Source of the DNA: an uncultured Gemmatimonadales bacterium
GTDB taxonomy: Bacteria; Actinomycetota; Acidimicrobiia; Spongiisociales; UBA5794
Assembly (NCBI GenBank): GCA_964195945.1
Contig: CAXMRC010000037.1
Span: 3,217-67,216 of the forward strand
Direction: 5' to 3'
Length of the DNA stretch: 64,000 bases
The position numbers and the translations under genes were made by a program. Numbering within the stretch: the stretch's first letter is position 1; every line of letters starts with the position of its first letter. The notes below the pieces were generated by a model that searched no databases, was not told the DNA's origin, and saw only the letters and a list, made by a program, of their open reading frames with translations. Shown piece by piece: positions 3,028-64,000 of the stretch.

Positions 3028-3669
3028 ATGACTGCCGAACAAGACCTCGATGCTGGTATTGACGCCGCGGGCCTCCGCATTTCCTCCTCGGCGCCCGCGG
3101 TGATTCGAGTGGCACGAGCATTGTTCGACCAACTCCCGTTTCGCGATGTCTCGGTGGGGATGGTCGCCCGCGCTGCCGGTGTGAACGAAGTCACGATCTA
3201 CCGGATCTTTGGTTCCAAGGACGGGCTTGCCGCCGCGTGCTGGCTCGGCAATGTCGAGGCGCTGCGCCGCGGAATCAACAGGGATCGCCACGAGCCATGG
3301 AGCCCGATCGACCGGGTCCGACGACATTTGACCCGCCTCGCTCGGATAGCCCTTAAAGACCGGGCTGTCACTTTTGCGTTGCTGCAAGCAGTCGAGGCAC
3401 AGACGGTGGAGCGTGGTTCAAAGATCGGGGCTCTTGACCCGCGGGCGTTGGTCCCCCTACCTCTGTTGCTGGAACCGCTTATCGCCGATGCCCAAGATGC
3501 CGGTCAGCTGATTGACAACTACTCAAGCATTGAACTCGCAGCTTTCCTGGGGAACTCGATGCTTATTCGGCTAATGACCAGGCCGGATGCACCCGCCGCC
3601 GAGAGCGCAGCATTCGTTCTCGATGTTGCTCTGAACGGGATCGCAACCGGTGGGCGGCACCCTGCATGA
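3028..3669 (+). CDS. TetR/AcrR family transcriptional regulator
   Basis: HTH SVGMVARAAGVNEVTIYRIFGSKDGL; TATGCT -10 at 3016-3021, 6 nt before ATG. Confidence 0.9.
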   Translation: MTAEQDLDAGIDAAGLRISSSAPAVIRVARALFDQLPFRDVSVGMVARAAGVNEVTIYRIFGSKDGLAAACWLGNVEALRRGINRDRHEPWSPIDRVRRHLTRLARIALKDRAVTFALLQAVEAQTVERGSKIGALDPRALVPLPLLLEPLIADAQDAGQLIDNYSSIELAAFLGNSMLIRLMTRPDAPAAESAAFVLDVALNGIATGGRHPA

Positions 3670-4418
3670 TGCTGCGCAGACAACGCGAGATCACCGAAGT
3701 CGCCAACGGCGTATTCCGGCTTGGAAGCAGGCACGTCAACTGGTATGTCGTGGTCGATGGTGGATCCATAACCGTCGTAGACACCGGCCTGCCTAGATAC
3801 TGGCCCCAGCTCACCCATCTTCTATCGGCAATCGGGCGCTCCCTGAGTGACATCGAGGCCGTTCTCCTAACCCATGCTCATCCCGACCACCTCGGCAACG
3901 CCGAACGACTCGCCAAGGTGGGCGGAGCAGCTGTGATGATCCACGAAGAAGATGCCCCCGCCGCAATGAGGCAGGTTCGCATTCCGCCGCCCAGGGTCTC
4001 GTTGTGGCGACCCTCGATACTTGCGTTTTCGTTGCATGGGATCCGCAACGGCCTGTTGAGGTGGCCAACCGTCGCATCGCCAAATGCGATTGGTAGCGGC
4101 ACTCACCTCGACATACCCGGGAGACCGATGGCGATTCATACGCCGGGCCACACCGTCGGCAGCACTTGCTTTGCTTTCGAGGACAGAGACGCCATCATGG
4201 TTGGCGACGCCCTGTTCAACAAGAATCCCGACACAGGGCGAGAGGACCCGATCGTTAGCTCTGCGCATTTCAGCGCAGACCACCACGCAGCTGTCACTTC
4301 GCTGTTACAAATCGAGGGTCTTGCTCATCGCACGGTGCTCTTTGGACACGGTGAGCCATCTAACCGAGGGATTCAGACCGTGGTCCGTCAGGCGCGCACC
4401 CACATCGACTCGGCCTAG
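3666..4418 (+). CDS. Metallo-beta-lactamase fold hydrolase
   Basis: THAHPDHLG, TPGHT, VGDAL, FGHG; ATGA overlap with the TetR gene. Confidence 0.92.
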   Translation: MMLRRQREITEVANGVFRLGSRHVNWYVVVDGGSITVVDTGLPRYWPQLTHLLSAIGRSLSDIEAVLLTHAHPDHLGNAERLAKVGGAAVMIHEEDAPAAMRQVRIPPPRVSLWRPSILAFSLHGIRNGLLRWPTVASPNAIGSGTHLDIPGRPMAIHTPGHTVGSTCFAFEDRDAIMVGDALFNKNPDTGREDPIVSSAHFSADHHAAVTSLLQIEGLAHRTVLFGHGEPSNRGIQTVVRQARTHIDSA

Positions 4419-4461
4419 TGGTACGTCGCACAAATAACCACCGTGTCTCTCCGTCCCACAC

Positions 4462-4558
4462 CGCCTGCCCGTCGGGCAGGTACGGCTGCGCCTTCCTCCT
4501 CAACGCAGTGCAGTGACTCCGCCCTCTGACGTCGCCTGTCCTTCGGACAGGTCGGCTG
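4462..4558. repeat. Pair of REP-like palindromes between convergent genes
   Basis: cgCCTGCCC-gtc-GGGCAGGtacggctg (4462-4488) and cgCCTGTCC-ttc-GGACAGGtcggctg (4533-4558); 7-bp stems with a compensatory C-G to T-A change. Confidence 0.55.
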
Positions 4559-4614
4559 TGCCGGATGACGCCGATGCCTCGGAGACACCCTGGCGCTATC
4601 TATGCGACACAGCA

Positions 4615-7392
4615 CTATTCGTCGGAACAAATCGACAGGATCTCGTCTCCGTACGCATCGAGTTTTGCCGGGCCGATGCCGGAGATCATGATCAGCTCCC
4701 GTTCGGTTCTTGGTCGTGCCGCGGCGATGGCATGGAGCGTCTTGTCAGTGAGGATCACGTAAGCAGGCACCGAACTGGCAACCGCGGTCTCGAGACGCCA
4801 TGTCTTGAGCTGTTCAACGAGGGTCTCGTCAACCGCAACATCCTCCAGCGGCCGCAACAATGGACCGCTTCCTGAAGGGGCAGTCACTGTCTCGCCCCAC
4901 GTCACAAGCATGGAGCTGGTACCAGAGTCGAGGGCAACGACCACACCACCTTCCTCAAATTCTTCGACAACCCCCCCATATCCACCAGCAACACGAATGC
5001 GATCTCCGACACTGGTAGCCACCCCGTCGCGGCGCCCGGCTGTCGCCACCACCTTTGGCTCCACCCGCGCTGCCTTCCCCGTCATCTCATCAAGAAAGAC
5101 CGAGGGGCGGGCCTTGTCGGCAAGCACGACCACCTGTTTGCGACCACGGGTGATCGCAACATGAAAGACCCTCCGTTCCTCCTCCCGATCCTCTGCCAGA
5201 TCGTGGGGAAACAAGCCTCGATCGGCGCCAAACACGACCACCCTGTCCCATTCCATTCCTTTGACACGATGCACCGTGCTCAGCTCAACACCATGAGGAT
5301 CATCGGTGTGATCCAGGGCGGTGCGGAGCCAGGGTTCGAAGTCTGCAAGGGCGCGATGCAATACCGCTGCCCTGCGCAGCGCGACCAGGTCGTCTGATTG
5401 CGCCGAACGGTCGGCACGACGCCTGCCCGCATCCAGGGCGACGGCAGCACCGCTGAGACCAATCTCACTCGTGATGACATCAAGCATGCCGATGCTGTCA
5501 CCAGCCTCCGCAACTTCGACCGCTCTGGCGATGTCATCGCAGAAACCGTCCCACTTGGAGGCTTGATTGCCATCCAACTTGCCACCCATCGAATAGAGAT
5601 CATCGAGCGAGACCCGGCTGCGCCGCCCGACGAGTTGACTGGTGAGACGGGTCAAGCCGCGCGCCGGACGACGAACGATCTTCATGAGATCGGAAGTTCG
5701 GATCGAGTCTGGGTTGAGCCCGATCCTGATCCAAGCCAGGGCGGCGGCCGTCACGGTACGTTCCAACACATCGCTTCCCAGCGGGGAGTGGAACGGGATC
5801 CCCGCCTCCACAAAGGCAACATGGGCGGGCAGCAAAGCTGAATTGACCCTGCACAGCACTGCAATCTCAGCGGCTGGGGTCTCGCCGAGCCACTCACCTA
5901 CTCGCACTGCACATTGCAGACCAAGTTCAGAGCCCGCCTGCCGGTCGATGGTCAGCGCGTCGTTCTGCTCGTCGTCAACGCCGGGTCTGATGACCTTGTC
6001 TACTCGACGGTCGTTGTAGCTCAGGAGGGTTGCGGCGGCTTCGACCACGCTTGGAGGGCACCGGTAGTTCACCTCGAGAGGATGTGACGCTGCGCCAGGG
6101 AATAGCTTGTCATAGTCGATGAGGAAGCCGGGGTCGGCGCCGAGGTACCCGTAGATGACCTGGTCGTCATCACCCACGCCAAACACATTGAGACCCGGTG
6201 CAGCCAGCAAACGGATCAGCAATAGGTAACTAGGGGTGAGGTCCTGGAACTCATCGACGACCATGTGCCGGCACCGGTCCTGCCATTGATAACGAAGATC
6301 GGGCATGGTCAATAGAGCTTGGATAGCTCCGTAGACCTGCTCATCGAAATCGGCTTCCCTCCTGTCCTGGATCATGCTCCGATAACGCTCGTAGACGCGA
6401 GCGAAATCAGGAACGTCATCACGAAACGCCTCCACCTCATCTGGGGGGCGGAGCCCGATCCGGACCTCACCGAGCGCTTCGATGTACGGTCCGATTACGT
6501 CCGAGTTGGGTCGGCGCGGGGCCTCGACCAAGCCGTCGAGGAGGCGCCGCTGCTCGCGCTCGTTGAGCAACGCAAGACCGCCCCTGGCTTGTCGCAGAAT
6601 CTCCCATCCCAGCGAGTGGATGGTTCGCACCTTGAGCCCCGACCGTGGCCGGAGTCGTTCTCGCATCTCGGCGGCGGCCCGGTTGTTGTAGGCCAGCGCA
6701 CAGATGATTCCGGGTTCGACGCCCCGGTCATCGATGAGGTGCCGTACCCGGGCGGTCAAGGTTCGGGTCTTCCCCGATCCGGCAGGAGCGATGATGCGGG
6801 CCGGACCGGATGCATGTGTGGCGGCGGCACGCTGGTCGGGCGCAAGATCCTGGAACGATGTCTCGACACTGGTCGGCGCTACCCGCAGCGACCCGAGCGT
6901 TACAGACTCAGCGTGGACCACGGGGTCCTCGAGTCCAGCCAAAGGACCGCGCGGACCTCCGTCCACCCACGCTTCGGTGCCATCGGCGAGGACGATGTCC
7001 ATCGTCTGCCCCGGCCGAGCACCAAGAGATACAGCCTTCCGACCCCACCACCAGATCAGCTCGCTGCTGCGATAGTCGTAGCTGTTGACCCAAACGAGGT
7101 GGTGTAATCGCTCCCTGTTGAATGCAAAGCCACGCCGCAGCCGCCATGGGTCCATTGGTGATGTCTCTGGTTTTCTCAGCACTGCGGGATCGACACTCAA
7201 CTCGATGACGATCGGCTCCCGATTCACCCAGGCGCGATGCAGCTGATCGACCAGTACTTCCATCGCCTCCCGATCGTCAATGATCTGCTGGGTGACGCTG
7301 ACGGACGCCGCCTGCTCCCACGGTTCGGGCGCGGCGTCGGCCCGGCCGACAACGACCGAACGTCCCAGTACGACAGGAGGGGGCGGGTTCAC
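4615..7392 (-). CDS. UvrD/REP-family SF1 DNA helicase with C-terminal HRDC domain
   Basis: APAGSGKT, VVDEFQD, VGDDDQ, NYRC, STVHRVKGMEW, EEERRVFHVAITR; HRDC LKTWR...VPAYVILTDKTL...ISGIGPAK. Start GTG 7392 chosen from TATGCT -10 7 nt upstream (ORF is open to 7440). Confidence 0.92.
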   Translation of the reverse strand: MNPPPPVVLGRSVVVGRADAAPEPWEQAASVSVTQQIIDDREAMEVLVDQLHRAWVNREPIVIELSVDPAVLRKPETSPMDPWRLRRGFAFNRERLHHLVWVNSYDYRSSELIWWWGRKAVSLGARPGQTMDIVLADGTEAWVDGGPRGPLAGLEDPVVHAESVTLGSLRVAPTSVETSFQDLAPDQRAAATHASGPARIIAPAGSGKTRTLTARVRHLIDDRGVEPGIICALAYNNRAAAEMRERLRPRSGLKVRTIHSLGWEILRQARGGLALLNEREQRRLLDGLVEAPRRPNSDVIGPYIEALGEVRIGLRPPDEVEAFRDDVPDFARVYERYRSMIQDRREADFDEQVYGAIQALLTMPDLRYQWQDRCRHMVVDEFQDLTPSYLLLIRLLAAPGLNVFGVGDDDQVIYGYLGADPGFLIDYDKLFPGAASHPLEVNYRCPPSVVEAAATLLSYNDRRVDKVIRPGVDDEQNDALTIDRQAGSELGLQCAVRVGEWLGETPAAEIAVLCRVNSALLPAHVAFVEAGIPFHSPLGSDVLERTVTAAALAWIRIGLNPDSIRTSDLMKIVRRPARGLTRLTSQLVGRRSRVSLDDLYSMGGKLDGNQASKWDGFCDDIARAVEVAEAGDSIGMLDVITSEIGLSGAAVALDAGRRRADRSAQSDDLVALRRAAVLHRALADFEPWLRTALDHTDDPHGVELSTVHRVKGMEWDRVVVFGADRGLFPHDLAEDREEERRVFHVAITRGRKQVVVLADKARPSVFLDEMTGKAARVEPKVVATAGRRDGVATSVGDRIRVAGGYGGVVEEFEEGGVVVALDSGTSSMLVTWGETVTAPSGSGPLLRPLEDVAVDETLVEQLKTWRLETAVASSVPAYVILTDKTLHAIAAARPRTERELIMISGIGPAKLDAYGDEILSICSDE

Positions 7393-7449
7393 GTCGCGCA
7401 GCATACGGGGGCGCTGGGACACAACCAGAAAAGGATCCAACGCGCGGCG

Positions 7450-8271
7450 TTAGCCAAGCGGCTCGATCTCAAAAACGGTTCCGCCTTCTGGATGATCGAA
7501 TCGAATCGCGGCGGTCTTTTCACTCATGTGATGAACACGTAGGAAGAGCTCGACAAACGGGTCGTCATATCCAGAGGAGCCAGCGTTGACTGCCAGCACC
7601 CCGCGCGGCACGGTGAAGCCGCCATCGGAGATGACACCTGCCAGGATGACCCCGTTGAGCGTTACCAACACCCGGTCACCGACGCTGAGTCCGGCGGCGT
7701 CGAGATGGGACTTGCGAAGCGTCGTCTTGATATTGCCAAACCCGTCGGTCCAGGCCACCAGATGTGATGGCACATCCTCGATAGTTGCCGGATCAAGCGT
7801 GTCGGTCAGCACCGAGTAGTCACCATCGACAATGGCGGCGACGTACTTGGGGAAGAAGTCCCGAGAACGGAACTGGGAACCGGCTGCGGGGCTGGCCACG
7901 TCGCGGTATTCGACGATGCGATCCTTGATGAAACTGAACGCGTACTCGGAGCAGACACTGACGACTTCGACGCCGTTGTCCAGCTTGGCGTATCGCAAAC
8001 CCCTTCCCCGATTCTCAGCGGAGACTTCATCGCGATCGCGCCGCGGTGCCGCGTTGCCAAAGATGACCATGCGATCTGATGCCTGCCCTAGCGCCAACTG
8101 TGCAGTGGCGAACCCGACCGCGATCGTATCGAGCGGCGGGGTCGAAGTCTGATGTATCGCAACCGAGCCAGGATCGACAAGCGAGGTATGGAAACGGGTC
8201 ATTATCTCGGCGAATTCGAGCCCGTCGGGGGCGTAGTCGCAGATCATGTGGAGAAGGGTTGGTCTATTCAC
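7450..8271 (-). CDS. SAM hydroxide adenosyltransferase / SAM-dependent halogenase family protein (DUF62), divergent
   Basis: N-terminal CDY, QFRSRDFFP, DGFGNIKTT and VNAGSSG...ELF segments match the family layout; TACCAT -10 at 8278-8283. Confidence 0.75.
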   Translation of the reverse strand: MNRPTLLHMICDYAPDGLEFAEIMTRFHTSLVDPGSVAIHQTSTPPLDTIAVGFATAQLALGQASDRMVIFGNAAPRRDRDEVSAENRGRGLRYAKLDNGVEVVSVCSEYAFSFIKDRIVEYRDVASPAAGSQFRSRDFFPKYVAAIVDGDYSVLTDTLDPATIEDVPSHLVAWTDGFGNIKTTLRKSHLDAAGLSVGDRVLVTLNGVILAGVISDGGFTVPRGVLAVNAGSSGYDDPFVELFLRVHHMSEKTAAIRFDHPEGGTVFEIEPLG

Positions 8272-49012: not shown

Positions 49013-49882
49013 TTAGTCGGCCCACTTGCGAGGACGGTCCCGGAGGCGATCGAAGCCAAGTTCATCGCATAGCTCGTGGAACGGTTGGCGCCGCGCCCCC
49101 TTCCATTCGAGATCCTCGAGGTTCTCTTTTAGTGGCACGTCACGCCGAAGTTGCGCCAGGAACCTGAAGAGAAGAGCGTCACCCATCCATCTCCGCAACG
49201 TCCCCGCAAGCTTCTCGGCGCTGCGCACCTTCACATCCCACCGTGCCGGATCGAGCGGAATGTTCTCGAGGTGCCCGTATCTCTCCAGCACCACAGAGCT
49301 GGACTTGGCCCCCCATCCCTGGAGACCCGGCAAACCGTCGGCGGCGTCACCCACCAATGCCAGGTAGTCAGGAATGGACTCCGGACGCACTCCGAATTTC
49401 TCCATGACCCCTGCCGCATCCATAAATGTCTGCCGGCGCCGGTCATATCCAACGATACGGGGATGGCCGTAACACTGGGCGAGATCTTTGTCAGGAGTGA
49501 GCACCACGACCTGTTCGACATCGTCAGCCCAACGCCACGCACCGGCGGCCAGCGCATCGTCGGCCTCGAATTCCGTCATCGACCACACGGTCACTCCCAG
49601 GGCATGGAGCGCACGCTCCGCTAGAGCGAATTGTGCCAACAGCACCTCGTCTATTCCTTCGCCACTCTTGTAGGCGGGGTAGACCTCATTGCGGAACGAA
49701 ACGATGACGCTGTCGAACGCCGCGGCAAGATGAGTCACGCCGGGCTCGCTGAGAAGAGACAAGGTCGAAGCAACGATGCCGTAAGTTGCGCCCACCTCTT
49801 GACCGGTTGGACTCGTTCGAGGCGGAGCCCCAAAGTGGGAGCGAAACAGTTCGTAGGTGCCGTCCATGAGATGCAGCTTCAT
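49013..49882 (-). CDS. Stand-alone 5'-3' (flap) exonuclease
   Basis: LMDGT, AFD, YK, EADD, DKD, LVGDAADGLPGLQGWGAKS (H3TH). Confidence 0.93.
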   Translation of the reverse strand: MKLHLMDGTYELFRSHFGAPPRTSPTGQEVGATYGIVASTLSLLSEPGVTHLAAAFDSVIVSFRNEVYPAYKSGEGIDEVLLAQFALAERALHALGVTVWSMTEFEADDALAAGAWRWADDVEQVVVLTPDKDLAQCYGHPRIVGYDRRRQTFMDAAGVMEKFGVRPESIPDYLALVGDAADGLPGLQGWGAKSSSVVLERYGHLENIPLDPARWDVKVRSAEKLAGTLRRWMGDALLFRFLAQLRRDVPLKENLEDLEWKGARRQPFHELCDELGFDRLRDRPRKWAD

Positions 49883-49958
49883 GACACGCGACGATACCCG
49901 TTTGCCGGGAAGTGAGCTTGACGCGATTTCCATAGACGAGACGTACTACCGTTTGCCC

Positions 49959-53041: not shown

Positions 53042-55954
53042 ATGAACTACTGCGTTGAGGTTGCCACCAAGCCGGGATTTCGGGACACGAGGACCGACGA
53101 TCTCAAGGACCAAATCGAGCTGCTGGGAATCCCCGGGGTCGATTCGGTCGATATTGCGGACCGCTATTACCTGAGCGGACCCCTCTCACCAGAGACGCTC
53201 GATCACCTCACAGCCTCACTTCTCGCCGACAGTGTGATCGAAACCGCACGCAGTTTTCCACTGGACAAAGATCACGCCGTCTCCGGTGCAGGTACCTATA
53301 CCGTGGATGTAGTCCTCCATCCGGGGGTGACCGACTCGCCGGCCGAGAGTTTGCTCGCCGGCATCGCCGAAATCGGATTGAACGGCGTAGAACAAGCAGC
53401 GACCGGCCGTCGCTACACACTGCACGGCACTGCGCTGCAACAAGAACATGTCGAACGAATCGCAGCGGAGCTGCTGGCAAACGACGTGATCCAGACCTAC
53501 TACGTCGGCGAACCGGCCCCTCCACCATTTACGGTGACCGCAACTGCGGTTCCGGCAACAAATGAGATCGTGCTGCAGGGCCTCGACCACAACCAGCTGG
53601 TTGCCCTCAGCGCTGCCAGAAGACTGAGTCTCGACGGCGACGAGATGCAAGCGATCCAGGCCTATTTCGCCCAGCAGGGGCGGCCCGCAACCGAGCTAGA
53701 ACTGGAGACTCTCGCCCAGACCTGGTCAGAGCACTGCGTCCACAAGACGTTTCGAGCCATGATCACGTACACCGGGCCACCGCCCGACGCCACCGGTCCG
53801 ATCGAGACGACAACCGTCGATTCGATTCTCGACGAACACATCCGTGCCGCCACCGAGGCGGTGGACAAGCCGTGGGTGAGGTCGGCCTTTGTTGATGACG
53901 CAGGAATCGTGGCCCTCGATGACACCACCGATCTTGCCTTCAAAGTCGAGACTCACAATCATCCCTCCGCTCTCGAGCCATTCGGTGGTGCCAATACGGG
54001 AGTTGGTGGAGTCGTCCGCGACGTGATCGGTGTCAGCGCCCGACCCATAGCTAACACCGACATACTTTGTTTTGGCCCCCAGGACACCAGCTTCGATGAA
54101 CTCCCTGAAGGCGTCCACCATCCGAAACGTATCGCCGACGGTGTAATCGCCGGGATCGAGGACTACGGGAACAAGATGGGGATCCCCACCGTGAACGGAG
54201 CCGTCATCTATGACTCCGGGTACACCGCTAACCCGTTGGTCTTCTGTGGCTGTCTTGGTGCGCTCCCCACTGGATCCCACCCAACCGCGCCGCAGCCAGA
54301 CGATCGAGTGGTCGTTCTCGGTGGGCGCACTGGCCGCGACGGTCTGCGCGGGGCGACGTTTTCCTCTATGGAGGCAGACCACACCACTAGTGACTTATCT
54401 GGCAGCGCCGTACAGATCGGCCACCCCATACACGAGAAACAGGCCCTCGAGGTGATAATCAACGCCCGCGATGAACGCCTCTACAACGCCATTACCGATT
54501 GCGGAGCCGGCGGTCTGTCCTCGAGCGTTGGTGAGATGGCCGAGGAACTGGGGGCGATCGTCCACCTGGAACGAGTACCTCTCAAGTACCCAGGCCTGGC
54601 ACCGTGGGAAATCTGGTTGAGCGAGGCCCAAGAGCGAATGGTCATAGCGGTACCGGATAAGAACCTGGAACGGCTTGCGGAGATCGCAGCGGCACTCGAC
54701 GTCGAGATGACTGTGCTCGGCAAGTTCACCGGCGACGGCATACTCCGGATCGACTACAACGGCAGCACCGTTGGCGAGATTGAGTGCGAGTTTCTCCATA
54801 ACGGTCTCCCCCGCCAACACCTAACGGCGGAGTGGCGACCGCCCGAGGTCCAAGCGCGCCGGCTCCAGCTGCCCATGGAGCCCACAACGGCGCTGCTTGC
54901 TCTACTCGCCGATCCCAACATCAGGTCTAAAGAAGACATCGTCCGTCGCTATGACCACGAGGTCCAGGGTGGAACCGTCGTCAAACCATTTGTCGGCATC
55001 GCCCAGGCGGGGCCTTCCGATGCGGCTGTTGTCACGCCCCTCGATGTGCACCGGCAGGCCGGTGTTGTTCCTGGTGCCGCCCTGGCCGTGGGTGTCAACC
55101 CGGCATACGGAACGCTCGATCCATACCGTATGGCCTGGGCCACCGTCGACGAAGCCGTGCGCAACGTTGTCGCGGTGGGTGCCGACCCGGACCGCATCTC
55201 CATCCTCGACAACTTCTCGTGGGGCAATCCTCGAATCCCTGACCGACTTGGTTCACTGGTGCGCTGCACCCAGGGTTGCTACGACGCCGCGGTCGCCTAC
55301 GGGACACCGTTCATCTCCGGAAAGGACAGCCTCAACAACGAGTACACCGGAATCGACGGACGCAAACACACCATTCCCGGCACACTCGTCATCTCATCAC
55401 TTGGCATCGTGCCCGATGTCACGAACACAGTCACCAGCGATCTCAAAGGTGTCGGCCACAGTCTTTACATCGTTGGAGCCACCGGCGACCACCTCGGTGG
55501 CTCGGCGCTTGCCGGTCTAGTTGAGTTCGAAGGGGGTTCGGCTCCTGCCCCTGTCCCTGCTGCCATTACCGGATACCGAGCGCTCCACGAAGCCATCGCC
55601 TCGGGGTTGGTAGCAGCCTGTCACGACGTTTCCGAGGGTGGGATATCCGTTTCCGCAGCCGAAATGGCAATCGGTGGAGGATGCGGTCTGACAATCTCGT
55701 TGCGGGATGTACCGGGGGATGACGACGACACGACAAAGGCGTTCAGCGAATCGCTCGGCCGCCTGCTCGTCGAGATACGACCGGAGAACACCGCCAGTTT
55801 CGAAGAGCTGATGACCGGGTACCCCACTGCAGCAATTGGCGAGACGACAGATGACGCAATGATCCAGATCAAGTCAAGCGACGGATCGCCATTCATTGTC
55901 GTCGAGGTGACCGCCGTGACCGCAGCGTGGCGCAGCGTGGGGGGGCCCCGATGA
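53042..55954 (+). CDS. purL: FGAM synthase PurL with two PurS-like N-terminal domains
   Basis: TWSEHCVHK, KVETHNHPS, GANTGVGG, GGRTGRDG, DCGAGG, SEAQERM, SGKDSL, HDVSEGG; N-terminal KPG..D and HPGVTD repeats. Confidence 0.95.
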   Translation: MNYCVEVATKPGFRDTRTDDLKDQIELLGIPGVDSVDIADRYYLSGPLSPETLDHLTASLLADSVIETARSFPLDKDHAVSGAGTYTVDVVLHPGVTDSPAESLLAGIAEIGLNGVEQAATGRRYTLHGTALQQEHVERIAAELLANDVIQTYYVGEPAPPPFTVTATAVPATNEIVLQGLDHNQLVALSAARRLSLDGDEMQAIQAYFAQQGRPATELELETLAQTWSEHCVHKTFRAMITYTGPPPDATGPIETTTVDSILDEHIRAATEAVDKPWVRSAFVDDAGIVALDDTTDLAFKVETHNHPSALEPFGGANTGVGGVVRDVIGVSARPIANTDILCFGPQDTSFDELPEGVHHPKRIADGVIAGIEDYGNKMGIPTVNGAVIYDSGYTANPLVFCGCLGALPTGSHPTAPQPDDRVVVLGGRTGRDGLRGATFSSMEADHTTSDLSGSAVQIGHPIHEKQALEVIINARDERLYNAITDCGAGGLSSSVGEMAEELGAIVHLERVPLKYPGLAPWEIWLSEAQERMVIAVPDKNLERLAEIAAALDVEMTVLGKFTGDGILRIDYNGSTVGEIECEFLHNGLPRQHLTAEWRPPEVQARRLQLPMEPTTALLALLADPNIRSKEDIVRRYDHEVQGGTVVKPFVGIAQAGPSDAAVVTPLDVHRQAGVVPGAALAVGVNPAYGTLDPYRMAWATVDEAVRNVVAVGADPDRISILDNFSWGNPRIPDRLGSLVRCTQGCYDAAVAYGTPFISGKDSLNNEYTGIDGRKHTIPGTLVISSLGIVPDVTNTVTSDLKGVGHSLYIVGATGDHLGGSALAGLVEFEGGSAPAPVPAAITGYRALHEAIASGLVAACHDVSEGGISVSAAEMAIGGGCGLTISLRDVPGDDDDTTKAFSESLGRLLVEIRPENTASFEELMTGYPTAAIGETTDDAMIQIKSSDGSPFIVVEVTAVTAAWRSVGGPR

Positions 55955-58178: not shown

Positions 58179-59672
58179 GTGCAACGAGTGAACGACATGT
58201 TCGCAGACGACATACTCGATCGCCCCCGTGAGGCGTGCGGTGTATTCGGCATATACGCGCCAAACACCGACGTGGCCCGCGTCTCTTTCTTCGCCCTCTA
58301 TGCCCTCCAGCACCGCGGCCAGGAGAGCGCCGGAATCGCAACGAGCGACGGCGTTTCTGCAGCCGTCCACAAAGATATGGGTCTTGTCGCCCAGGTGTTC
58401 ACCGAAGACAACCTGGCCCGTCTCGAAGGGCACCTCGCCATCGGACAAACTCGCTACTCGACCACCGGGTCATCCCACCTGCGGAATGCGCAGCCATACC
58501 TAATCGAGACGATGCATGGACCACTCGGAGTGGGACACAACGGCAACCTGACCAACGCCCCGCAACTCCGCAACAGGTTGCTGAAACGAGGTGTCGGCCT
58601 TTCCTCCTCGAGTGACAGCGAAGTAATCACACAGATGCTGGCTGCGCCGGCGCCGGATACAACGGATGCGAGCCCTGACTGGGAGTCACGGATTACCCAA
58701 TTCATCGCCGAGGCCGAAGGAGCGTACTCCCTCGTTGTGCTGACGCGGAACGCCGTATTCGGTGTTCGCGACCCCAAAGGGTTCCGCCCTCTCTGCATCG
58801 GGAAACTGGCCGACGGTGGCTACGTACTTGCTTCTGAGTCGTGTGCGCTTGGTACCGTCTCCGCCAGCTACGTGCGGGAGGTAGAGCCGGGAGAGATCGT
58901 CAGACTCGACCAGGACGGCTTGCACAGCATCTCGAGCCAGAACCGACAACCATCCTCACTTTGCGTCTTTGAGTACGTCTATTTCTCGCGACCCGATTCG
59001 GTTCTGGAGAACCAGACAATTCACCGGGTACGACAGCGGCTCGGGGAAGTCCTCGCCGCCGAAGCTCCCGCCCACGCTGATGTCGTCGTTGGGGTTCCAG
59101 ACTCCGCGACGCCTGCCGCCATCGGGTATGCCACCGCGTCTGGCATTCCCTATACCGAGGGGCTCATCAAGAACCGCTACATCGGACGCACCTTTATCGA
59201 ACCCGACGATCAGCTTCGCCGATCCGGCGTCCATCTCAAGTACAACCCGCTCGACGCCAATCTTGCAGGCAAGCGGGTCGTTCTTATCGATGATTCGATC
59301 GTGCGTGGTACAACAGCCGGACCGCTGGTGACTCTCCTCCGCGAGGGAGGTGCGGCCGAAGTCCATGTTCGTGTTTCTTCTCCCCCGGTTCGCCATCCAT
59401 GCTTCATGGGGATCGACATGGCAGCCAGCAAAGACCTGATCGGCTTCGTCAAAACAACAGAAGAAATCAGAGAGCACATCGGTGCTGATAGCCTCGCCTA
59501 TCTATCGCAAGAGGGAATGATGAGTGCTGTGACACAAGAGGCTGCCGCAGGGTCCGGCCATTGCAACGCTTGTTTCTCCGGCGAATACCCAATCAAGCTC
59601 GACAAGTTTTGGAAAGACCGTGACAAGCTCGCCTTCCATGGTGCTTGGTCCGAAGGTGGAGGAGACCAATGA
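58179..59672 (+). CDS. purF: Amidophosphoribosyltransferase
   Basis: EACGVFG, LQHRGQE, RYST, HNGN, FEYVYF, DDSIVRG, CNAC. Confidence 0.97.
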   Translation: MQRVNDMFADDILDRPREACGVFGIYAPNTDVARVSFFALYALQHRGQESAGIATSDGVSAAVHKDMGLVAQVFTEDNLARLEGHLAIGQTRYSTTGSSHLRNAQPYLIETMHGPLGVGHNGNLTNAPQLRNRLLKRGVGLSSSSDSEVITQMLAAPAPDTTDASPDWESRITQFIAEAEGAYSLVVLTRNAVFGVRDPKGFRPLCIGKLADGGYVLASESCALGTVSASYVREVEPGEIVRLDQDGLHSISSQNRQPSSLCVFEYVYFSRPDSVLENQTIHRVRQRLGEVLAAEAPAHADVVVGVPDSATPAAIGYATASGIPYTEGLIKNRYIGRTFIEPDDQLRRSGVHLKYNPLDANLAGKRVVLIDDSIVRGTTAGPLVTLLREGGAAEVHVRVSSPPVRHPCFMGIDMAASKDLIGFVKTTEEIREHIGADSLAYLSQEGMMSAVTQEAAAGSGHCNACFSGEYPIKLDKFWKDRDKLAFHGAWSEGGGDQ

Positions 59673-61996
59673 CAGCCAACGTTCTCCTTATCGGGAGTGG
59701 TGGCCGCGAGCACGCCCTGGCGTGGAAACTCGCCGAGTCACCACACGTCGCAAATGTCTTTGTTGCACCGGGCAACGGTGGGACAGCCGGGGCGGGCGGC
59801 AAGATCAAAAACATAGCAATCGCCGAATCCGCCTTCGATGATCTGATCGAATTTGCGGGAGACAACGATATTGAGCTGACGGTGGTGGGGCCGGAAGCCC
59901 CCCTTGTCGACGGGATCGTCGACTGCTTTGAACGCGCCGGGTTGCGCTGTTTTGGCCCGGTGGCAGGAGCCGCCCGTCTCGAAGGCTCGAAGCGATTCTC
60001 CAAAGAGCTCATGGATAGGGCCCGGATACCGACAGCCGCGTACCAAACCTTCACCGACCACGGTGAAGCAATCGACTACTTCAGGTCCACCGATGGCCGC
60101 GTCGTGATCAAGGCATCGGGCCTTGCTGCCGGCAAAGGCGTGATCGTCCCCAACTCCAACTCCGAAGCGGAGCAGGCGCTAAACCGGATCATGATCGAGC
60201 ACGAGTTTGGAGATGCAGGATCAGAGGTTGTCATCGAAGAACGCTTGTTCGGTCAGGAGGTATCGATCCTGGCGTTTTGTGACGGGACCACGATCGTCCC
60301 GATGCCACCTGCGCAGGATCACAAACCGCTTCTGGATAGCGACAAGGGCCCAAATACGGGAGGGATGGGGGCCTATGCCCCGACCCCGTTGATTGACGCG
60401 GCCATGATGGGCGAGTTCGTAACAGGGGTGATGGAGCCAGTTATCCGTGCCCTCGCTCTCGACGGCTATCCCTATGTCGGCATCCTCTACGCGGGACTCA
60501 TGCTCACCGACGACGGCCACAAGGTGCTCGAGTTCAATTGTCGGTTTGGCGATCCCGAGACCCAGGTTGTGCTGCCACTGCTCACGAGCGATCTCTATGA
60601 GGTTCTCAATGCGTGTATTGATGGCACACTGGGCAACATCGACGTCGGCTGGAGTGACGAGGTCGCGGCGACGGTGGTGGCGGCAGCCGAGGGATACCCA
60701 GGCCCCTCTACACCGGGACGGCGCATTACAGGTCTCGACGACGCAGCCGGCGTTCCAGGGGTGACGGTATTCCATGCGGGCACTGCCCTCGATGGCGAGT
60801 TTGTCACCGCGGGCGGTCGAGTTGTCGCCGTAACCGGTGTCCAGCCCAACCTGCCGATGGCTTTGGCGTGCGCCTATCACGGCATCGAGCACATCGAATT
60901 CGAGGGGATGCAGTATCGCAACGATATCGGGGCACGAATCGGGGAGCTACCTGAGGCGGCGGGTCGCCAGAGCCTGCTCCCCCGCAGCGCAACCTACGCA
61001 GATGCCGGTGTCGACATAGCGGCAGGATCACGCGCAGTCGCGATGATGAAACGCGATGTCTTGTCGACCTACGGACCCGAGGTCATTGCCGGGATCGGAT
61101 CGTTTGGGGGCATGTTCGATGCGTCCGGACTTGGTGCGGACGCGGTCCTCGTTGCGTCGACTGACGGAGTGGGAACAAAGACCAAGATCGCCACCCAGCT
61201 GCAGCGGTTCGACACCATCGGACACGACATCGTCAACCACTGCGTTAACGACATCCTGGTGCAGGGCGCTCGGCCTCTCTTCTTCCTCGACTACGTGGCG
61301 ACCAGCCATCTCGATCCGCGGATAGCGGCCACTGTGGTTGGAGGGATGGCCGCGGCTTGTCGTGAGGCTGGTTGCGCCTTGCTCGGCGGAGAGACGGCCG
61401 AGATGCCAGGGGTCTATGAGGAAGACGAACTCGACGTCGTCGGAACGATGATTGGTGTGGTTAGCCGGAGCCAGATCATCGACCACCGTCGGGTCGAGGT
61501 GGGAGACGCAGTCATCGGTATCCGATCGTCCGGGCTGCACACGAACGGATTCTCGCTGGCACGCAAGGTATTCGAGCTTTGGGACCTTGCAGACAGGATC
61601 GCCGCTCTGGGCGGCTCGCTCGGCAGCGCCTTGCTCGAACCACACCGCAGCTACCTCCCGCACATCATGGCCCTCCGCGATGCGGGCATCGATATCCACG
61701 CACTCGTGCATATAACTGGGGGCGGTCTTATCGAGAATCCAGCTCGAGTTCTGCCAGAAAAGACGGCATTACGTATCAACCGATCTTCGTGGGCAATCCC
61801 GCCCCTGTTCGCTCTCATCCGATCTCAGGGCAACATCATCGAACGAGAAATGTTCACGGCGTTCAACATGGGCGTCGGCATGCTGGTTGTACTTCCTGCG
61901 GCCGCGGCGACTGATGCGCTCTTGAAGCTCGGCTCCGAGGCATGGCTGATCGGTGAGATCATCCCGCGCCGCGACGAACCTGTTGAGCTGGCGTGA
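59669..61996 (+). CDS. purD-purM: Bifunctional GAR synthetase-AIR synthetase (PurD-PurM fusion)
   Basis: GSGGREHA...LEGSK...KASGLAAGKG...EFNCRFGDPE...YRNDIG, short linker, then TYADAGVDI...TDGVGTK...GGETAEMP...SSGLHTNG...FNMGVG in one frame. Confidence 0.96.
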   Translation: MTANVLLIGSGGREHALAWKLAESPHVANVFVAPGNGGTAGAGGKIKNIAIAESAFDDLIEFAGDNDIELTVVGPEAPLVDGIVDCFERAGLRCFGPVAGAARLEGSKRFSKELMDRARIPTAAYQTFTDHGEAIDYFRSTDGRVVIKASGLAAGKGVIVPNSNSEAEQALNRIMIEHEFGDAGSEVVIEERLFGQEVSILAFCDGTTIVPMPPAQDHKPLLDSDKGPNTGGMGAYAPTPLIDAAMMGEFVTGVMEPVIRALALDGYPYVGILYAGLMLTDDGHKVLEFNCRFGDPETQVVLPLLTSDLYEVLNACIDGTLGNIDVGWSDEVAATVVAAAEGYPGPSTPGRRITGLDDAAGVPGVTVFHAGTALDGEFVTAGGRVVAVTGVQPNLPMALACAYHGIEHIEFEGMQYRNDIGARIGELPEAAGRQSLLPRSATYADAGVDIAAGSRAVAMMKRDVLSTYGPEVIAGIGSFGGMFDASGLGADAVLVASTDGVGTKTKIATQLQRFDTIGHDIVNHCVNDILVQGARPLFFLDYVATSHLDPRIAATVVGGMAAACREAGCALLGGETAEMPGVYEEDELDVVGTMIGVVSRSQIIDHRRVEVGDAVIGIRSSGLHTNGFSLARKVFELWDLADRIAALGGSLGSALLEPHRSYLPHIMALRDAGIDIHALVHITGGGLIENPARVLPEKTALRINRSSWAIPPLFALIRSQGNIIEREMFTAFNMGVGMLVVLPAAAATDALLKLGSEAWLIGEIIPRRDEPVELA

Positions 61997-62577
61997 ACCG
62001 TGTTGCCGTCCTGATATCAGGCAAAGGCACCAACCTTCAGGCTCTGATTGATAGCACCGCCTCAGGCGACCTGGATGCCGAAATCTGCGTGGTGGTGTCG
62101 AGTAGTCCTGATGCGTACGGGCTCGTCAGGGCAGAGCGGGCAAACATCCCCGTTGCGGTCATCACCCCAGATGGGTTCGGCGGTGATCGCGACTCATTCG
62201 ACGCTGAGCTTGCCGCCGTCGTCGCCTCCTACCACCCAAACCTTGTCGTCCTGGCCGGCTGGATGTTGATCCTCGGTGCGAATTTCCTCGATCGCTTCTC
62301 GAACCGGGTGATCAACCTGCACCCGGCGATGCCAGGGTCCTTCCCAGGTACCAAGGCAATTGAGCGAGCTCATGCAGCCTTCCATCGCGGTGAGATCAAG
62401 CGCACCGGTGTGATGGTGCACCAGGTCATCGCCGAAGTCGATGCTGGTCCGGTTGTAGTGATGGAGCCGGTACCCATATTCCGTGGCGAATCCGTAGAAG
62501 ATCTCGAAGAGCGCGTTCACCTGGTTGAGCACAACCTGATAATTGCGGCAGTCGATCTGTTGCTAGGCGATGCCTAG
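61993..62577 (+). CDS. purN: GAR transformylase
   Basis: SGKGTNLQA, LAGWM, INLHP, GVMVH, DAGP; GTGA overlap with purD-purM. Confidence 0.96.
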   Translation: MNRVAVLISGKGTNLQALIDSTASGDLDAEICVVVSSSPDAYGLVRAERANIPVAVITPDGFGGDRDSFDAELAAVVASYHPNLVVLAGWMLILGANFLDRFSNRVINLHPAMPGSFPGTKAIERAHAAFHRGEIKRTGVMVHQVIAEVDAGPVVVMEPVPIFRGESVEDLEERVHLVEHNLIIAAVDLLLGDA

Positions 62578-64000
62578 AGCGGTTTCCGCCGCCTCCAGGT
62601 GCTGCCCCCCGCGCAGAACCGGAGCGAACAGATCACCGTATTGGCGGAGCCGGGGCCAGATGGTTGCGATAGTGAAGTCGTCTGGCCTGACCTGGCCGAT
62701 CTCATCCCACAGGATTGGGGTCGATACTGGAGCCCCGGGACGGGGCCGGACCGAGTAGACCGAGGCGATGGTTTTCCCGCCAACGTTTTGATTGTGATCG
62801 ATGAAGACCTTTGCTCCCCTTTTGGCGATGTCCCACGTCATCGTCACTGTCTCGGGATCAGCGGCAACAACCAATTGTCCGACTGTCTCGACAAAACGGC
62901 GCACTCTGACGTACTCGTAGATCGGTTCGACAGGGACATAGATATGGATTCCGGTTGCCCCGCTCGTCTTTGCATAGGAGTCGAGACCGAGCCTGTCGAG
63001 GATGACTTTGATCAGACCCGCGGTGTAGGTGACCTGCTCCCACGTCACTCCTTTTTGTGGATCGAGATCGAAGACAGCGAAGTCCGCGTATTGGTGACGC
63101 TCGGCACGGCTCAGCCACGGGTGCATCTCGATACACGCCATGTTGGCGACCCAGATCAACGACTCGACATCTGGTGCCGTGCAAAACTCGATCGTCGCAC
63201 CGCCGGGTGCGTCGCCTCGATGGCTCGAGTGAATCGGTGCTCTAACCAGCCAGTCGGGTGCGTGCGACGGACATTGCTTCTCGTAGAAGAACTCGCCCGC
63301 GGAACCGTCGGGGTATCTCGCCATCGACAACGCCCGGCCGGCCACGTGGGGAAGTAGGAGGGGGGCTATCGATGCGTAGTACTGGATCAAGTCGCCCTTG
63401 GTGTAGTCATCACCAAAGAAGGGCTTGGCCGGGTTTGAGATGCGGACGGCACGATCGAGTCCGGTGGTTCGGAAGCCGTCTCCTTCGGGCGCAATGTCGA
63501 CCGGGTCCGGGAATTCGATGGCGGCCGTGGCCAGTCGATCCACCGGGCCTGAACTTTTTTGGATCACGGATGCCGCACCGGCACGGAGATCAGCCTCGAT
63601 CAGGTCGTGGCTCTCTTGTTCCCTTGCCTCGGAGATCACGACCATGCGCAGCCCGGCCGCGGCGGCGGCCTCCCCCAGGAGGTTGGAGCGGAGCGAGCCT
63701 TTACCGTACGGGAGATGGCGGATTTCTCCATGGATACCAAATTCGTTGTCGGTGAACTGAGTATGAAGCGGGTCGATAGCCCAACCGGGAAACTCGTTAC
63801 GGAGAAAGGCGATAACAGAGAGGAACGCCTCACGGGTGGTTAGGCCACCACCGGACTTAGCGTGGACGTGAGCCCAGTCGATTACCGGCCGGACGAACGA
63901 GAACTGCTTTGCGATGATTGCGATGTCACCGAGTGAGCCGAAGGCACGATCGCTACCTGCCGTCTCGAGACCCAGTGCGACACCAAGGTGACGAACCTTT
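62563..64000 (-). CDS. Fusion of an endonuclease IV-like TIM-barrel domain and a LigD/Prim-PolC-type primase-polymerase; 5' end beyond the window
   Basis: My translation of 63999-63646 has no stop: KVRHLGVALGLETAGSDRAFGSLGD...RPVIDWAHVHAKSGG...LHTQFTDNEFGIHGEIRHLPYG, continuing into the tracked ORF (VISEAR...TKGDLIQYY...RYPDG...FDLDP...KTSGATGIH...FIDHNQN...YSVRP). Confidence 0.88.
   Translation of the reverse strand, partial: KVRHLGVALGLETAGSDRAFGSLGDIAIIAKQFSFVRPVIDWAHVHAKSGGGLTTREAFLSVIAFLRNEFPGWAIDPLHTQFTDNEFGIHGEIRHLPYGKGSLRSNLLGEAAAAAGLRMVVISEAREQESHDLIEADLRAGAASVIQKSSGPVDRLATAAIEFPDPVDIAPEGDGFRTTGLDRAVRISNPAKPFFGDDYTKGDLIQYYASIAPLLLPHVAGRALSMARYPDGSAGEFFYEKQCPSHAPDWLVRAPIHSSHRGDAPGGATIEFCTAPDVESLIWVANMACIEMHPWLSRAERHQYADFAVFDLDPQKGVTWEQVTYTAGLIKVILDRLGLDSYAKTSGATGIHIYVPVEPIYEYVRVRRFVETVGQLVVAADPETVTMTWDIAKRGAKVFIDHNQNVGGKTIASVYSVRPRPGAPVSTPILWDEIGQVRPDDFTIATIWPRLRQYGDLFAPVLRGGQHLEAAETALGIA

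Follow-up and report, generated by a model that had tools for sequence, protein, structure and literature searches.

An endonuclease IV-like barrel fused to a LigD-type primase-polymerase in Acidimicrobiia, a candidate end-cleaning and gap-filling repair enzyme

The 64,000-nt stretch of DNA analysed here (the window) comes from an uncultured marine-sediment Acidimicrobiia bacterium and carries, on its minus strand and running off the window edge, a chromosomal gene in which an endonuclease IV (EndoIV)-like TIM barrel is fused to a LigD-type AEP primase-polymerase. We consider it fairly probable that this gene encodes a genuine two-domain DNA-repair enzyme of 606 AA residues, combining the making or cleaning of DNA ends with gap filling. 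Gene integrity, domain identities, residue conservation, distribution and synteny of the fusion were established directly, as described below.

A single continuous gene

The original prediction, made from the DNA letters, had extended the gene beyond the start given in the ORF track (63645). Indeed, the minus-strand frame 62563..63999 is free of stops up to the window edge, giving 478 codons on ORF inspection, 118 of them ahead of the ATG at 63645, and all motifs quoted at the time (LETAG, IDWAHVHA, LHTQF, GEIRHL, VISEA, FDLDP, KTSGATGIH and FIDHNQN) were found in this frame. The full-length product in the protein database, P0001, has 606 AA residues and matches at 100% identity the segment that was searched, residues 1-185 of the part encoded in the window; the window therefore holds residues 129-606. 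This window-borne part, stop codon included (62563..64000, minus strand), was delimited by ORF analysis, protein match and Pfam, with the stop codon at 62563-62565 and the first 128 codons (384 nt) outside the window. At its 3′ end the fusion gene overlaps by 15 nt with the convergent purN (61993-62577). The supposed start of the ORF track is an internal ATG encoding Met247 (63643..63645, minus strand), located within the last barrel strand, five codons ahead of the metal ligand E252; Met247 is not kept in relatives, as exemplified by P0019, which has GIVVISEA at the same place.

A misassembly or frameshift joining two separate genes might be suspected, as the fusion gene is cut by the window and the two halves are found as overlapping ORFs in one relative (L088). 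However, an independent Logan contig from a marine-sediment metagenome (7395 bp, depth 30.7) covers 62400-63834 with no indel or joint, and thus crosses the domain junction. Both halves lie in one frame in 77 of the best 80 loci, taken from at least 558 GTDB species representatives that encode a relative of the N-domain, and the other three are interrupted by contig ends. More than 120 independently assembled protein clusters also display one continuous frame, and the length of the connector is conserved. The spanning contig and the one-frame loci rule out such an artefact, the probability of which we regard as negligible; the absence of a misjoin or stop between the domains, on which the original prediction depended, is borne out, and the fusion is confirmed as a real, single gene.

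The connector (residues 273-295; 63499..63567, minus strand) was defined from the AF2 model and from spacing counts. The model of both domains has a pLDDT of 90.4 and a pTM of 0.88, with low confidence in the connector only at residues 276-280, and the spacing from E252 to N317 is 62-67 residues in all 125 fusions, 103 of which have exactly 65. The reversed order, with the polymerase preceding the EndoIV-like domain, occurs in a small sister group. In the N-domain tree both orders fall in one clade (support 95/80), an unresolved trichotomy of the two orders and one stand-alone protein, so that a single origin followed by permutation is equally possible; two independent fusion events, as argued from the reversed order, are not demanded by the tree and were dropped. 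The 374-AA protein P0125 is a split or frameshifted fusion, and the stand-alone relatives P0124, P0278 and P0289 have no adjacent polymerase or ligase genes.

Domain identities and conserved residues

The barrel occupies residues 1-272 of the protein, of which the C-terminal part (residues 129-272; 63568..63999, minus strand) is encoded in the window, as judged from Pfam, alignment and conservation. With the full protein as query, Pfam detected AP_endonuc_2 (PF01261, xylose-isomerase-like TIM barrel) at residues 23-265 (E 2e-25); with the window fragment alone, Pfam and NCBIfam detected only the polymerase. The best NCBIfam matches of the N-domain are deoxyribonuclease IV models, with scores below the cut-offs of both TIGR00587 nfo (33.6 bits, cut-off 129.65) and NF002198 (34.7 bits, cut-off 244). 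On these sequence comparisons, the N-domain is a relative within the EndoIV superfamily and not an Nfo equivalog. In the PDB profile search, MJ1311 ranked first (8.6e-15), followed by M. tuberculosis EndoIV (4e-10), other EndoIVs and UVDE, with xylose-isomerase-like proteins below all EndoIV and UVDE matches; the predicted archaeal-like branch is thus supported by MJ1311 as the best match. To our knowledge, nuclease activity has never been demonstrated for MJ1311, the closest solved relative, and its structure is reportedly devoid of the EndoIV DNA groove.

The trinuclear centre of the E. coli enzyme (H69, H109, E145, D179, H182, H216, D229, H231 and E261) served as reference for the metal ligands. 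Sequence alignment placed eight of the nine, namely H63, H103, E140 (63964-63966), D169 (63877-63879), H172 (63868-63870), H207 (63763-63765), H223 (63715-63717) and E252 (63628-63630), all codons being on the minus strand and those of H63 and H103 outside the window. The column of D229 is occupied by Ile221, and an invariant glutamate, E220 (63724-63726, minus strand), stands one residue earlier, giving E-x-x-H instead of D-x-H. The Nfo-like metal-site pattern of the original prediction needs correcting at GEIRHL, the Glu of which stands one residue before the canonical Asp. Since the acidic Zn3 ligand is a Glu displaced by one position, the metal site may not be the same as in Nfo. All nine residues (H63, H103, E140, D169, H172, H207, E220, H223 and E252) are kept in 120-122 of the 122 fusion clusters, as is an EndoIV-like H-x-x-Y-F motif (121/122), and the N-domain has an extra invariant His, H174.

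The polymerase domain (residues 296-606; 62566..63498, minus strand) was assigned from Pfam, NCBIfam and structure matches. LigD_Prim-Pol (PF21686) matches residues 328-586 of the full protein with an E-value of 6e-86, and the 231.6 scored with TIGR02778 ligD_pol exceeds the cut-off of 214.7. Of TIGR02776, the polymerase part alone is matched (positions 315-583 of 587; 237.8 versus a cut-off of 373.2), and Pfam detected no ligase or PE domain in the 606-AA protein. The catalytic Asp triad, D439 (63067-63069), D441 (63061-63063) and D529 (62797-62799), and residues K472 and S474 of the NTP-binding motif K472/S474/H480 do not vary in any of the 125 fusions, and H480 is kept in 124, confirming the AEP primase-polymerase as intact. 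The 5′-phosphate pocket, formed by N317 (63433-63435), K320, K329 (63397-63399), R356 and P358, and the template wedge F366/Y367, all likewise encoded on the minus strand, align with N20, K23, K35, R63, P65 and I73/Y74 of Prim-PolC and are invariant in all 125 fusions.

The best solved matches of the polymerase domain are Prim-PolC structures 5op0/6sa0 (185 bits; Foldseek E 3e-27). Loop 3, which defines Prim-PolC, is absent: the alignment stops at Prim-PolC residue 288, after which about 20 residues remain, and the median tail beyond the aligned part is 22 AA in the 125 fusions. As Loop 3 is absent and LigC is not nearby, the domain was rejected as a Prim-PolC orthologue. The predicted LigD/Prim-PolC type can thus be kept as LigD-type, with Prim-PolC as its best solved match.

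Distribution and proposed function

The fusion is common within Acidimicrobiia and is carried by hundreds of protein clusters, under database names that are either generic or wrong, such as "DNA ligase" and "non-homologous end-joining DNA ligase". The latter is wrong because the protein has no ligase domain, and hundreds of entries are named "NHEJ DNA ligase" or "LigD" in this manner. Our literature searches found no published description of an EndoIV-polymerase fusion, in line with the original prediction, which knew of none; in databases the fusion is not rare. No relative was found in viral contigs, so a phage origin was rejected, and none of the RNA runs contains the stretch. A crude scan of ORFs for ATP-ligase motifs, together with a check of conserved clusters, revealed no ligase within 10 kb of the fusion in about 85 loci. 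Ku genes were likewise absent over this distance, and no glycosylase is a conserved neighbour in these loci. In 24 of 47 loci, the fusion gene is followed, in the same orientation, by a gene for a 5′-3′ flap exonuclease. This contradicts the earlier statement that the exonuclease is unlinked, since synteny is seen in about half of the loci.

The probable role of the fusion protein is to clean or cut DNA at damage and to fill the resulting gap within one chain, an interpretation drawn from the analysis as a whole. Most likely, the N-terminal barrel, with its multinuclear metal site and its place in the MJ1311-like branch, would make or clean a 3′-OH in damaged DNA, either by incision 5′ of an abasic site or by removal of a 3′-phosphate or 3′-sugar block. 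The LigD-type AEP polymerase may then dock on the 5′-phosphate of the downstream strand, splay the template by its Phe-Tyr wedge and fill the short gap, leaving sealing to a separate ligase encoded elsewhere. After incision at an AP site, the 5′ sugar or flap would be taken off by another enzyme, for which the syntenic 5′-3′ exonuclease is a candidate. The two activities, the way they are coupled and the pathway are all inferred; since no ligase, Ku or glycosylase gene is a conserved neighbour in the roughly 85 loci, the pathway is assigned by analogy. PF0258, a homologue of EndoIV from archaea that is listed in one table with MJ1311, possesses AP-endonuclease, 3′-5′ exonuclease and 3′-phosphatase activities (PMC2770678). 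When mycobacterial BER was reconstituted with Prim-PolC and LigC1, no other end-processing nuclease did as well as EndoIV, which also co-purifies with LigC (PMC5663958). An epistatic relation between ligD and nfo has been described for the desiccation resistance of B. subtilis spores (PMC4770248).

If the N-barrel were instead a sugar epimerase- or isomerase-like enzyme or some other phosphodiesterase, or if it had no catalytic role and served to bind DNA or as a scaffold, incision would not be coupled to synthesis by the fusion. The generic xylose-isomerase-like TIM barrel is the only Pfam match of the N-domain, one metal ligand is displaced, and the NCBIfam model for a cobamide-remodelling phosphodiesterase gives a weak match. 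Sugar epimerases are level with EndoIVs in fold-search E-values, with D-psicose and D-tagatose epimerases on top, and MJ1311 (3wqo) bears the PDB deposition title "D-tagatose 3-epimerase-like protein". We nevertheless find a barrel other than a nuclease very unlikely, as the five ligand positions present in EndoIV and absent from single-metal epimerases (H63, H103, H172 and E220/H223) are kept in 121-122 of 122 fusions, and EndoIV and UVDE stand above the isomerases in the sequence profile. TM-scores (0.76-0.78 to EndoIVs versus 0.58-0.74 to epimerases) and identity (24% to M. tuberculosis EndoIV versus 14-16% to epimerases) are on the EndoIV side as well, and the permanent attachment to a DNA polymerase, with either domain first, suggests that the barrel acts on DNA. 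The proposed EndoIV identity is thus upheld by profile ranking and TM-scores, though qualified by scores far below the Nfo cut-offs and by the tie in fold E-values.

A different partnership is conceivable for the same two domains, in which the fusion is an NHEJ end-processing enzyme, its EndoIV-like barrel replacing the PE domain of LigD as the 3′-end healing module, and acts together with Ku and an ATP-dependent ligase whose gene lies elsewhere rather than in excision or single-strand-gap repair. This would accord with the passed ligD_pol equivalog-domain cut-off, with a polymerase without Loop 3, the gap-specific element of Prim-PolC, and with profile searches in which the Methanocella NHEJ polymerase (233 bits) is about as close as Prim-PolC (239 bits). 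The TM-score is also higher to NHEJ polymerases without Loop 3 (0.87-0.89) than to Prim-PolC (0.80, normalised to Prim-PolC), and EndoIV enzymes have 3′-phosphatase and 3′-diesterase activities of the PE type (PMC2770678). On the other hand, NHEJ genes are usually clustered or fused (PMC5663958), the loci surveyed carry neither Ku nor a ligase gene within 10 kb, and the repair gene that recurs nearby codes for a flap exonuclease, as would suit the repair of nicks or gaps; we therefore regard a role in NHEJ as unlikely.

Returning to excision or single-strand-gap repair, a more far-reaching version can be formulated, which we offer as a tentative and somewhat doubtful possibility: the fusion could be the core of a self-contained Acidimicrobiia excision-repair route independent of Ku and LigD. 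In this route, a rigidly docked EndoIV-type barrel might pass the new 3′-OH straight to the AEP polymerase, the absence of Loop 3 would be explained by the nuclease domain taking over the hold on the upstream duplex, and the syntenic 5′-3′ flap exonuclease might clear the displaced 5′-dRP strand, all on the same tentative footing. If this is true, the fusion would join PolX-PHP and LigD PE-Pol as a "cut/clean-and-fill" machine, the third to have evolved independently, and substrates would be channelled between its two active sites.

The fusion is a natural "Rosetta stone", both orders joining enzymes that act in succession in the mycobacterial LigC work, and it provides independent support for the still-young idea that the work of bacterial AEP primase-polymerases extends beyond NHEJ to base-excision and single-strand-break repair. 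Being compact, the enzyme also lends itself as a model for the hand-off from end cleaning to gap filling, and it gives a hint at DNA maintenance in a class of sediment and soil bacteria that is abundant but uncultured.

Comparison with known repair systems

The same two enzyme types are found in the mycobacterial LigC set of EndoIV, Prim-PolC and LigC1 (Plocinski 2017, PMC5663958; Brissett 2020, PMC7442782), in which EndoIV cleans the 3′ end and the AEP polymerase fills a gap bounded by a 5′-phosphate. The 5′-phosphate pocket, the wedge, the Loop 2 Trp/Arg and the catalytic Asp residues are shared with Prim-PolC. However, the mycobacterial enzymes are separate proteins bridged by LigC1, whereas the two domains are covalently fused here, and the LigC gene, the operon partner of Prim-PolC, is not adjacent to the fusion. 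Prim-PolC pins the upstream duplex by Loop 3 (residues 313-333; P320, N321, K324 and R331), which is absent here, and the nuclease belongs to a divergent MJ1311-like branch rather than to mycobacterial End/Nfo (24% identity). With the EndoIV family (Nfo 1qtw, M. tuberculosis End 5zhz and T. maritima 2x7v; archaeal PF0258/PfuAPE and MJ1311 3wqo) the N-domain has in common the TIM-barrel fold and the H-x-x-Y-(L/F) motif, residues that Nfo inserts at the lesion. It differs from these enzymes in the replacement of D-x-H by E-x-x-H, the added invariant H174 and the fused polymerase, and it is a predicted nuclease only.

LigD (Pol-PE-Lig; 2iru, 2fao) has a polymerase of the same family and likewise unites an end-healing module with an AEP polymerase in one chain. 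It contains ligase and PE domains, whereas the fusion has neither and no Ku nearby, and its healing module is the PE beta-barrel, unrelated to the TIM barrel described here. The domains of PolX-PHP, the bacterial and archaeal PolX with a C-terminal PHP domain, are also non-homologous to those of the fusion (PHP versus EndoIV barrel, family X versus AEP). The activities of PolX in one chain, AP-endonuclease, 3′-phosphatase, 3′-diesterase and 3′-5′ exonuclease, have been demonstrated, as for B. subtilis PolX (PMC6616362, PMC3479172), whereas those put forward for the fusion are predicted. In PolX-PHP, too, the metal site is multinuclear and is combined with a gap-filling polymerase able to recognise the 5′-phosphate. 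Incision and filling by a single polypeptide is thus already known in principle from the precedent of PolX-PHP (PMC6616362), which, by uniting the same chemistries in one chain, is a functional analogue of the activity proposed for the fusion.

The fusion gene and its integrity

The minus-strand frame that ends at the stop codon at 62563–62565 stays open as far as the window edge, as the original prediction had noted, and comprises 478 codons, the ATG at 63645 being preceded by 118 of them. In the protein collection, the first 185 window-encoded residues matched with 100% identity P0001, a 606-aa protein encoded on a 70,450-bp contig and marked as the window's own product; the window therefore holds residues 129–606, and codons 1–128 fall outside it. 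The ATG at 63645 encodes Met247, located within the last strand of the N-terminal barrel and five codons before a metal-ligand Glu, and this residue is not conserved (Gly-Ile at the same place in the related protein P0019). The short ORF from this ATG arises only because the window cuts the gene.

Four marine-sediment metagenome runs yielded Logan contigs that match the fusion-gene stretch; one of these contigs (7395 bp, depth 30.7) spans 62400–63834, differs by six substitutions but has neither indels nor a joint, and thus crosses 63450–63700, where a check of read coverage had been proposed. The idea that the two-domain gene is an assembly artefact is excluded by this independent, continuous contig and by the presence of both domains in one frame in 77 of the best 80 GTDB representatives, the other three being cut by contig ends.

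An EndoIV-like barrel joined to a LigD-type polymerase

Pfam analysis of the full P0001 assigned AP_endonuc_2 to residues 23–265 (E 2e-25) and LigD_Prim-Pol to residues 328–586 (E 6e-86); with the window fragment alone, Pfam and NCBIfam detected the polymerase only. As a single sequence, the N-domain has M. tuberculosis EndoIV (5zhz, E 1e-8) as its closest solved relative. A profile of 12 N-domain sequences searched against solved structures matched MJ1311 (3wqo) best and over its full length (8.6e-15), followed by 5zhz (4e-10), the true EndoIVs 8axy, 2x7v, 3aal, 1xp3 and 1qtw (the last at 6e-4), and UV-damage endonucleases (6.5e-4), ahead of xylose-isomerase-like proteins (2e-3 and weaker). 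MJ1311 has been tabulated as the M. jannaschii EndoIV homologue beside P. furiosus PF0258, which was shown to act as AP endonuclease, 3'-5' exonuclease and 3'-phosphatase (Kiyonari et al., PMC2770678). The Pfam assignment and this ranking agree with the EndoIV-like N-terminus of the original prediction, but the best NCBIfam matches, both deoxyribonuclease IV models, score 34.7 and 33.6, far short of their respective curated cut-offs of 244 and 129.65.

The AlphaFold2 model, for which 39 fusion sequences were used, has a mean pLDDT of 90.4 and a pTM of 0.88, with values below 50 only at residues 276–280 and 389–394. In a fold search against the PDB (TM normalised to target), the modelled barrel matched EndoIVs and MJ1311 (E about 1e-10 to 1e-11, TM 0.76–0.78, 24% identity to 5zhz) as well as sugar epimerases (E about 1e-11, TM 0.58–0.74, 14–16% identity), so the predicted fold alone does not tell nuclease from epimerase. 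As judged from the alignment, it is the metal-ligand pattern that separates them. The EndoIV ligand positions H63, H103, E140, D169, H172, H207, H223 and E252 are kept in 120–122 of the 122 clusters with the barrel first, and the conserved positions include five that are absent from single-metal epimerases. The H-A-P-Y-F motif, the counterpart of the lesion-insertion motif H69...Y72-L73 of Nfo, is kept in 121 of 122. A non-nuclease barrel is unlikely because of this ligand pattern. The Nfo-like series E, D, H, H, E, H, E that had been read from the sequence thus aligns and is conserved, except that the canonical Asp column of D-x-H is Ile221 in P0001 and an invariant acid, E220, stands one residue earlier (E-x-x-H). 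Together with an extra invariant His, H174, this suggests that the metal site may be a modified trinuclear centre.

The polymerase scored 231.6 with TIGR02778 (cut-off 214.7), and in the fold search its model matched Prim-PolC (E 3e-27, TM 0.80), the Methanocella NHEJ polymerase (E 4e-25, TM 0.88) and the M. tuberculosis and P. aeruginosa LigD polymerases (E 1e-20 and weaker, TM 0.82–0.89). Prim-PolC structure-function residues (PMC7442782) were mapped onto P0001 by HMMER alignment: the 5'-phosphate pocket N20, K23, K35, R63 and P65 corresponds to N317, K320, K329, R356 and P358, the template wedge I73/Y74 to F366/Y367, and W219 and R224 of Loop 2 to W517 and R522, while the catalytic Asp triad is D439, D441 and D529. 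All are conserved in 124–125 of 125 fusion clusters. Loop 3, the C-terminal element (residues 313–333) that is the hallmark of Prim-PolC and holds the upstream duplex in place (PMC7442782), is absent from P0001, in which the alignment ends at Prim-PolC residue 288 with 20 residues remaining (family median, 22 aa). Profile searches placed the Methanocella enzyme (233 bits) and Prim-PolC (239 bits) equally close. The LigD/Prim-PolC-type assignment is accordingly narrowed: the sequence identifies a LigD-type polymerase, and a Prim-PolC orthologue was rejected.

Distribution and domain order

The N-terminal region is matched by 705 clusters (90% identity; protein collection). Of the best 120, nearly all have a length of about 600 aa and carry the two Pfam domains, under generic or wrong names ("TIM barrel protein", "deoxyribonuclease-4", "non-homologous end-joining DNA ligase", "bifunctional NHEJ protein LigD"). 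The architecture, unfamiliar to the original prediction, is therefore not rare. No published description of an EndoIV-like/LigD-type polymerase fusion was found in the literature. At least 558 GTDB species representatives encode an N-domain relative, the best 80 being almost all Acidimicrobiia MAGs; viral contigs contained no relative. Each of the 125 fusions has an E252-to-N317 spacing of 62–67 residues, with 103 at exactly 65, which, with the pTM of the model, suggests a constrained inter-domain geometry.

An exhaustive N-domain search of 1.84 billion representatives revealed the reversed order in P0130 (polymerase 30–281, barrel 347–581) and three further clusters, P0271–P0273, all keeping every barrel ligand. 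Loci of a different, lower-GC lineage hold such fusions (P0271 and P0130; L003/L004, 10001–11848, and L005/L006), and in L003 a separate, convergent AP_endonuc_2 gene (267 aa) lies just downstream. The N-domain tree groups fusions of both orders with one stand-alone protein in a single clade (support 95/80), to which a clade of bacterial stand-alone proteins of 340–390 aa is sister. Judging from these sequences, either a single fusion that was later permuted or two separate fusions involving close relatives may have given rise to the two orders; under either origin, the association outlived a rearrangement. P0124, a 279-aa stand-alone barrel (L087, 6001–6840), is nested within the fusions on a long branch, suggesting secondary loss of the polymerase; many ORFs of about 90–100 aa without family matches surround it. 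One relative, at L088 (131–1943), has its barrel (374 aa) and polymerase (248 aa) on two overlapping ORFs, which reflects either a decaying copy or a frameshift within the short Logan contig concerned. Two related stand-alone-clade barrels (P0284 and P0314) are fused to phosphoglucomutase domains, and a PGM gene also occurs some 3 kb away from the stand-alone barrel gene in L089 and L091.

Gene neighbourhood, proposed role and known systems

The fusion gene is convergent with purN (15-nt overlap), beyond which lies a purine operon including a fused purD-purM, a single 783-aa plus-strand ORF at 59645–61996 (GARS_N/A/C and AIRS/AIRS_C); the gene caller split the matching region of L001 into two genes. 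A 970-aa plus-strand ORF at 53042–55954 with PurS, FGAR-AT linker and PurL AIRS domains is a purS-purL fusion. At 2.4–7 kb upstream of the fusion, the closest long relative (L001) has a phage-type integrase (6453–7604) and a TrwC-type relaxase/helicase (3097–5772); the upstream flank is thus variable and may carry a mobile element.

The best-supported reading is that the fusion is a bifunctional repair enzyme, which we consider probable. The barrel would generate a clean 3'-OH, by incision 5' of an abasic site or removal of a 3'-phosphate or 3'-sugar block; the polymerase would anchor on the downstream 5'-phosphate and fill the short gap, and a separate ligase would seal the nick. EndoIV is the most effective end-processing nuclease in a reconstituted FPG-EndoIV-Prim-PolC-LigC1 pathway and co-purifies with LigC (PMC5663958), and ligD and nfo show epistasis in the desiccation resistance of B. 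subtilis spores (PMC4770248), making the nuclease-polymerase pairing plausible by analogy. The main rival, an NHEJ end-healing enzyme acting with Ku, appears rather unlikely. Across about 85 related loci of both domain orders, with up to 10 kb per side, no ORF had ATP-ligase motifs, and ligase, Ku or glycosylase genes formed no conserved cluster; recurrent neighbours are rhodanese, ABC-transporter, aldehyde dehydrogenase and stand-alone 5'-3' (flap) exonuclease genes. This exonuclease, which had been regarded as not linked to the fusion, is indeed 12.6 kb downstream in the window (49013–49933, same minus strand), behind rhodanese, aldehyde dehydrogenase and the inserted pur operon, but of the 47 loci that extend at least 5 kb past the fusion, 24 have it downstream in the same orientation and none has it upstream. 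In these loci the two genes are 25 bp (as measured by BLAST match) to 6 kb apart, and in L035 the exonuclease ORF (3152–4018) begins 9 nt past the fusion stop codon. The arrangement may be synteny inherited within one class and is therefore a lead, not evidence.

With Prim-PolC, the fusion shares the 5'-phosphate pocket, wedge, Loop 2 and Asp triad but not Loop 3. It is a new domain architecture made from two known families, for which a functional analogue is already known: PolX-PHP resembles the proposed role of the fusion while being built from unrelated folds (PMC6616362).
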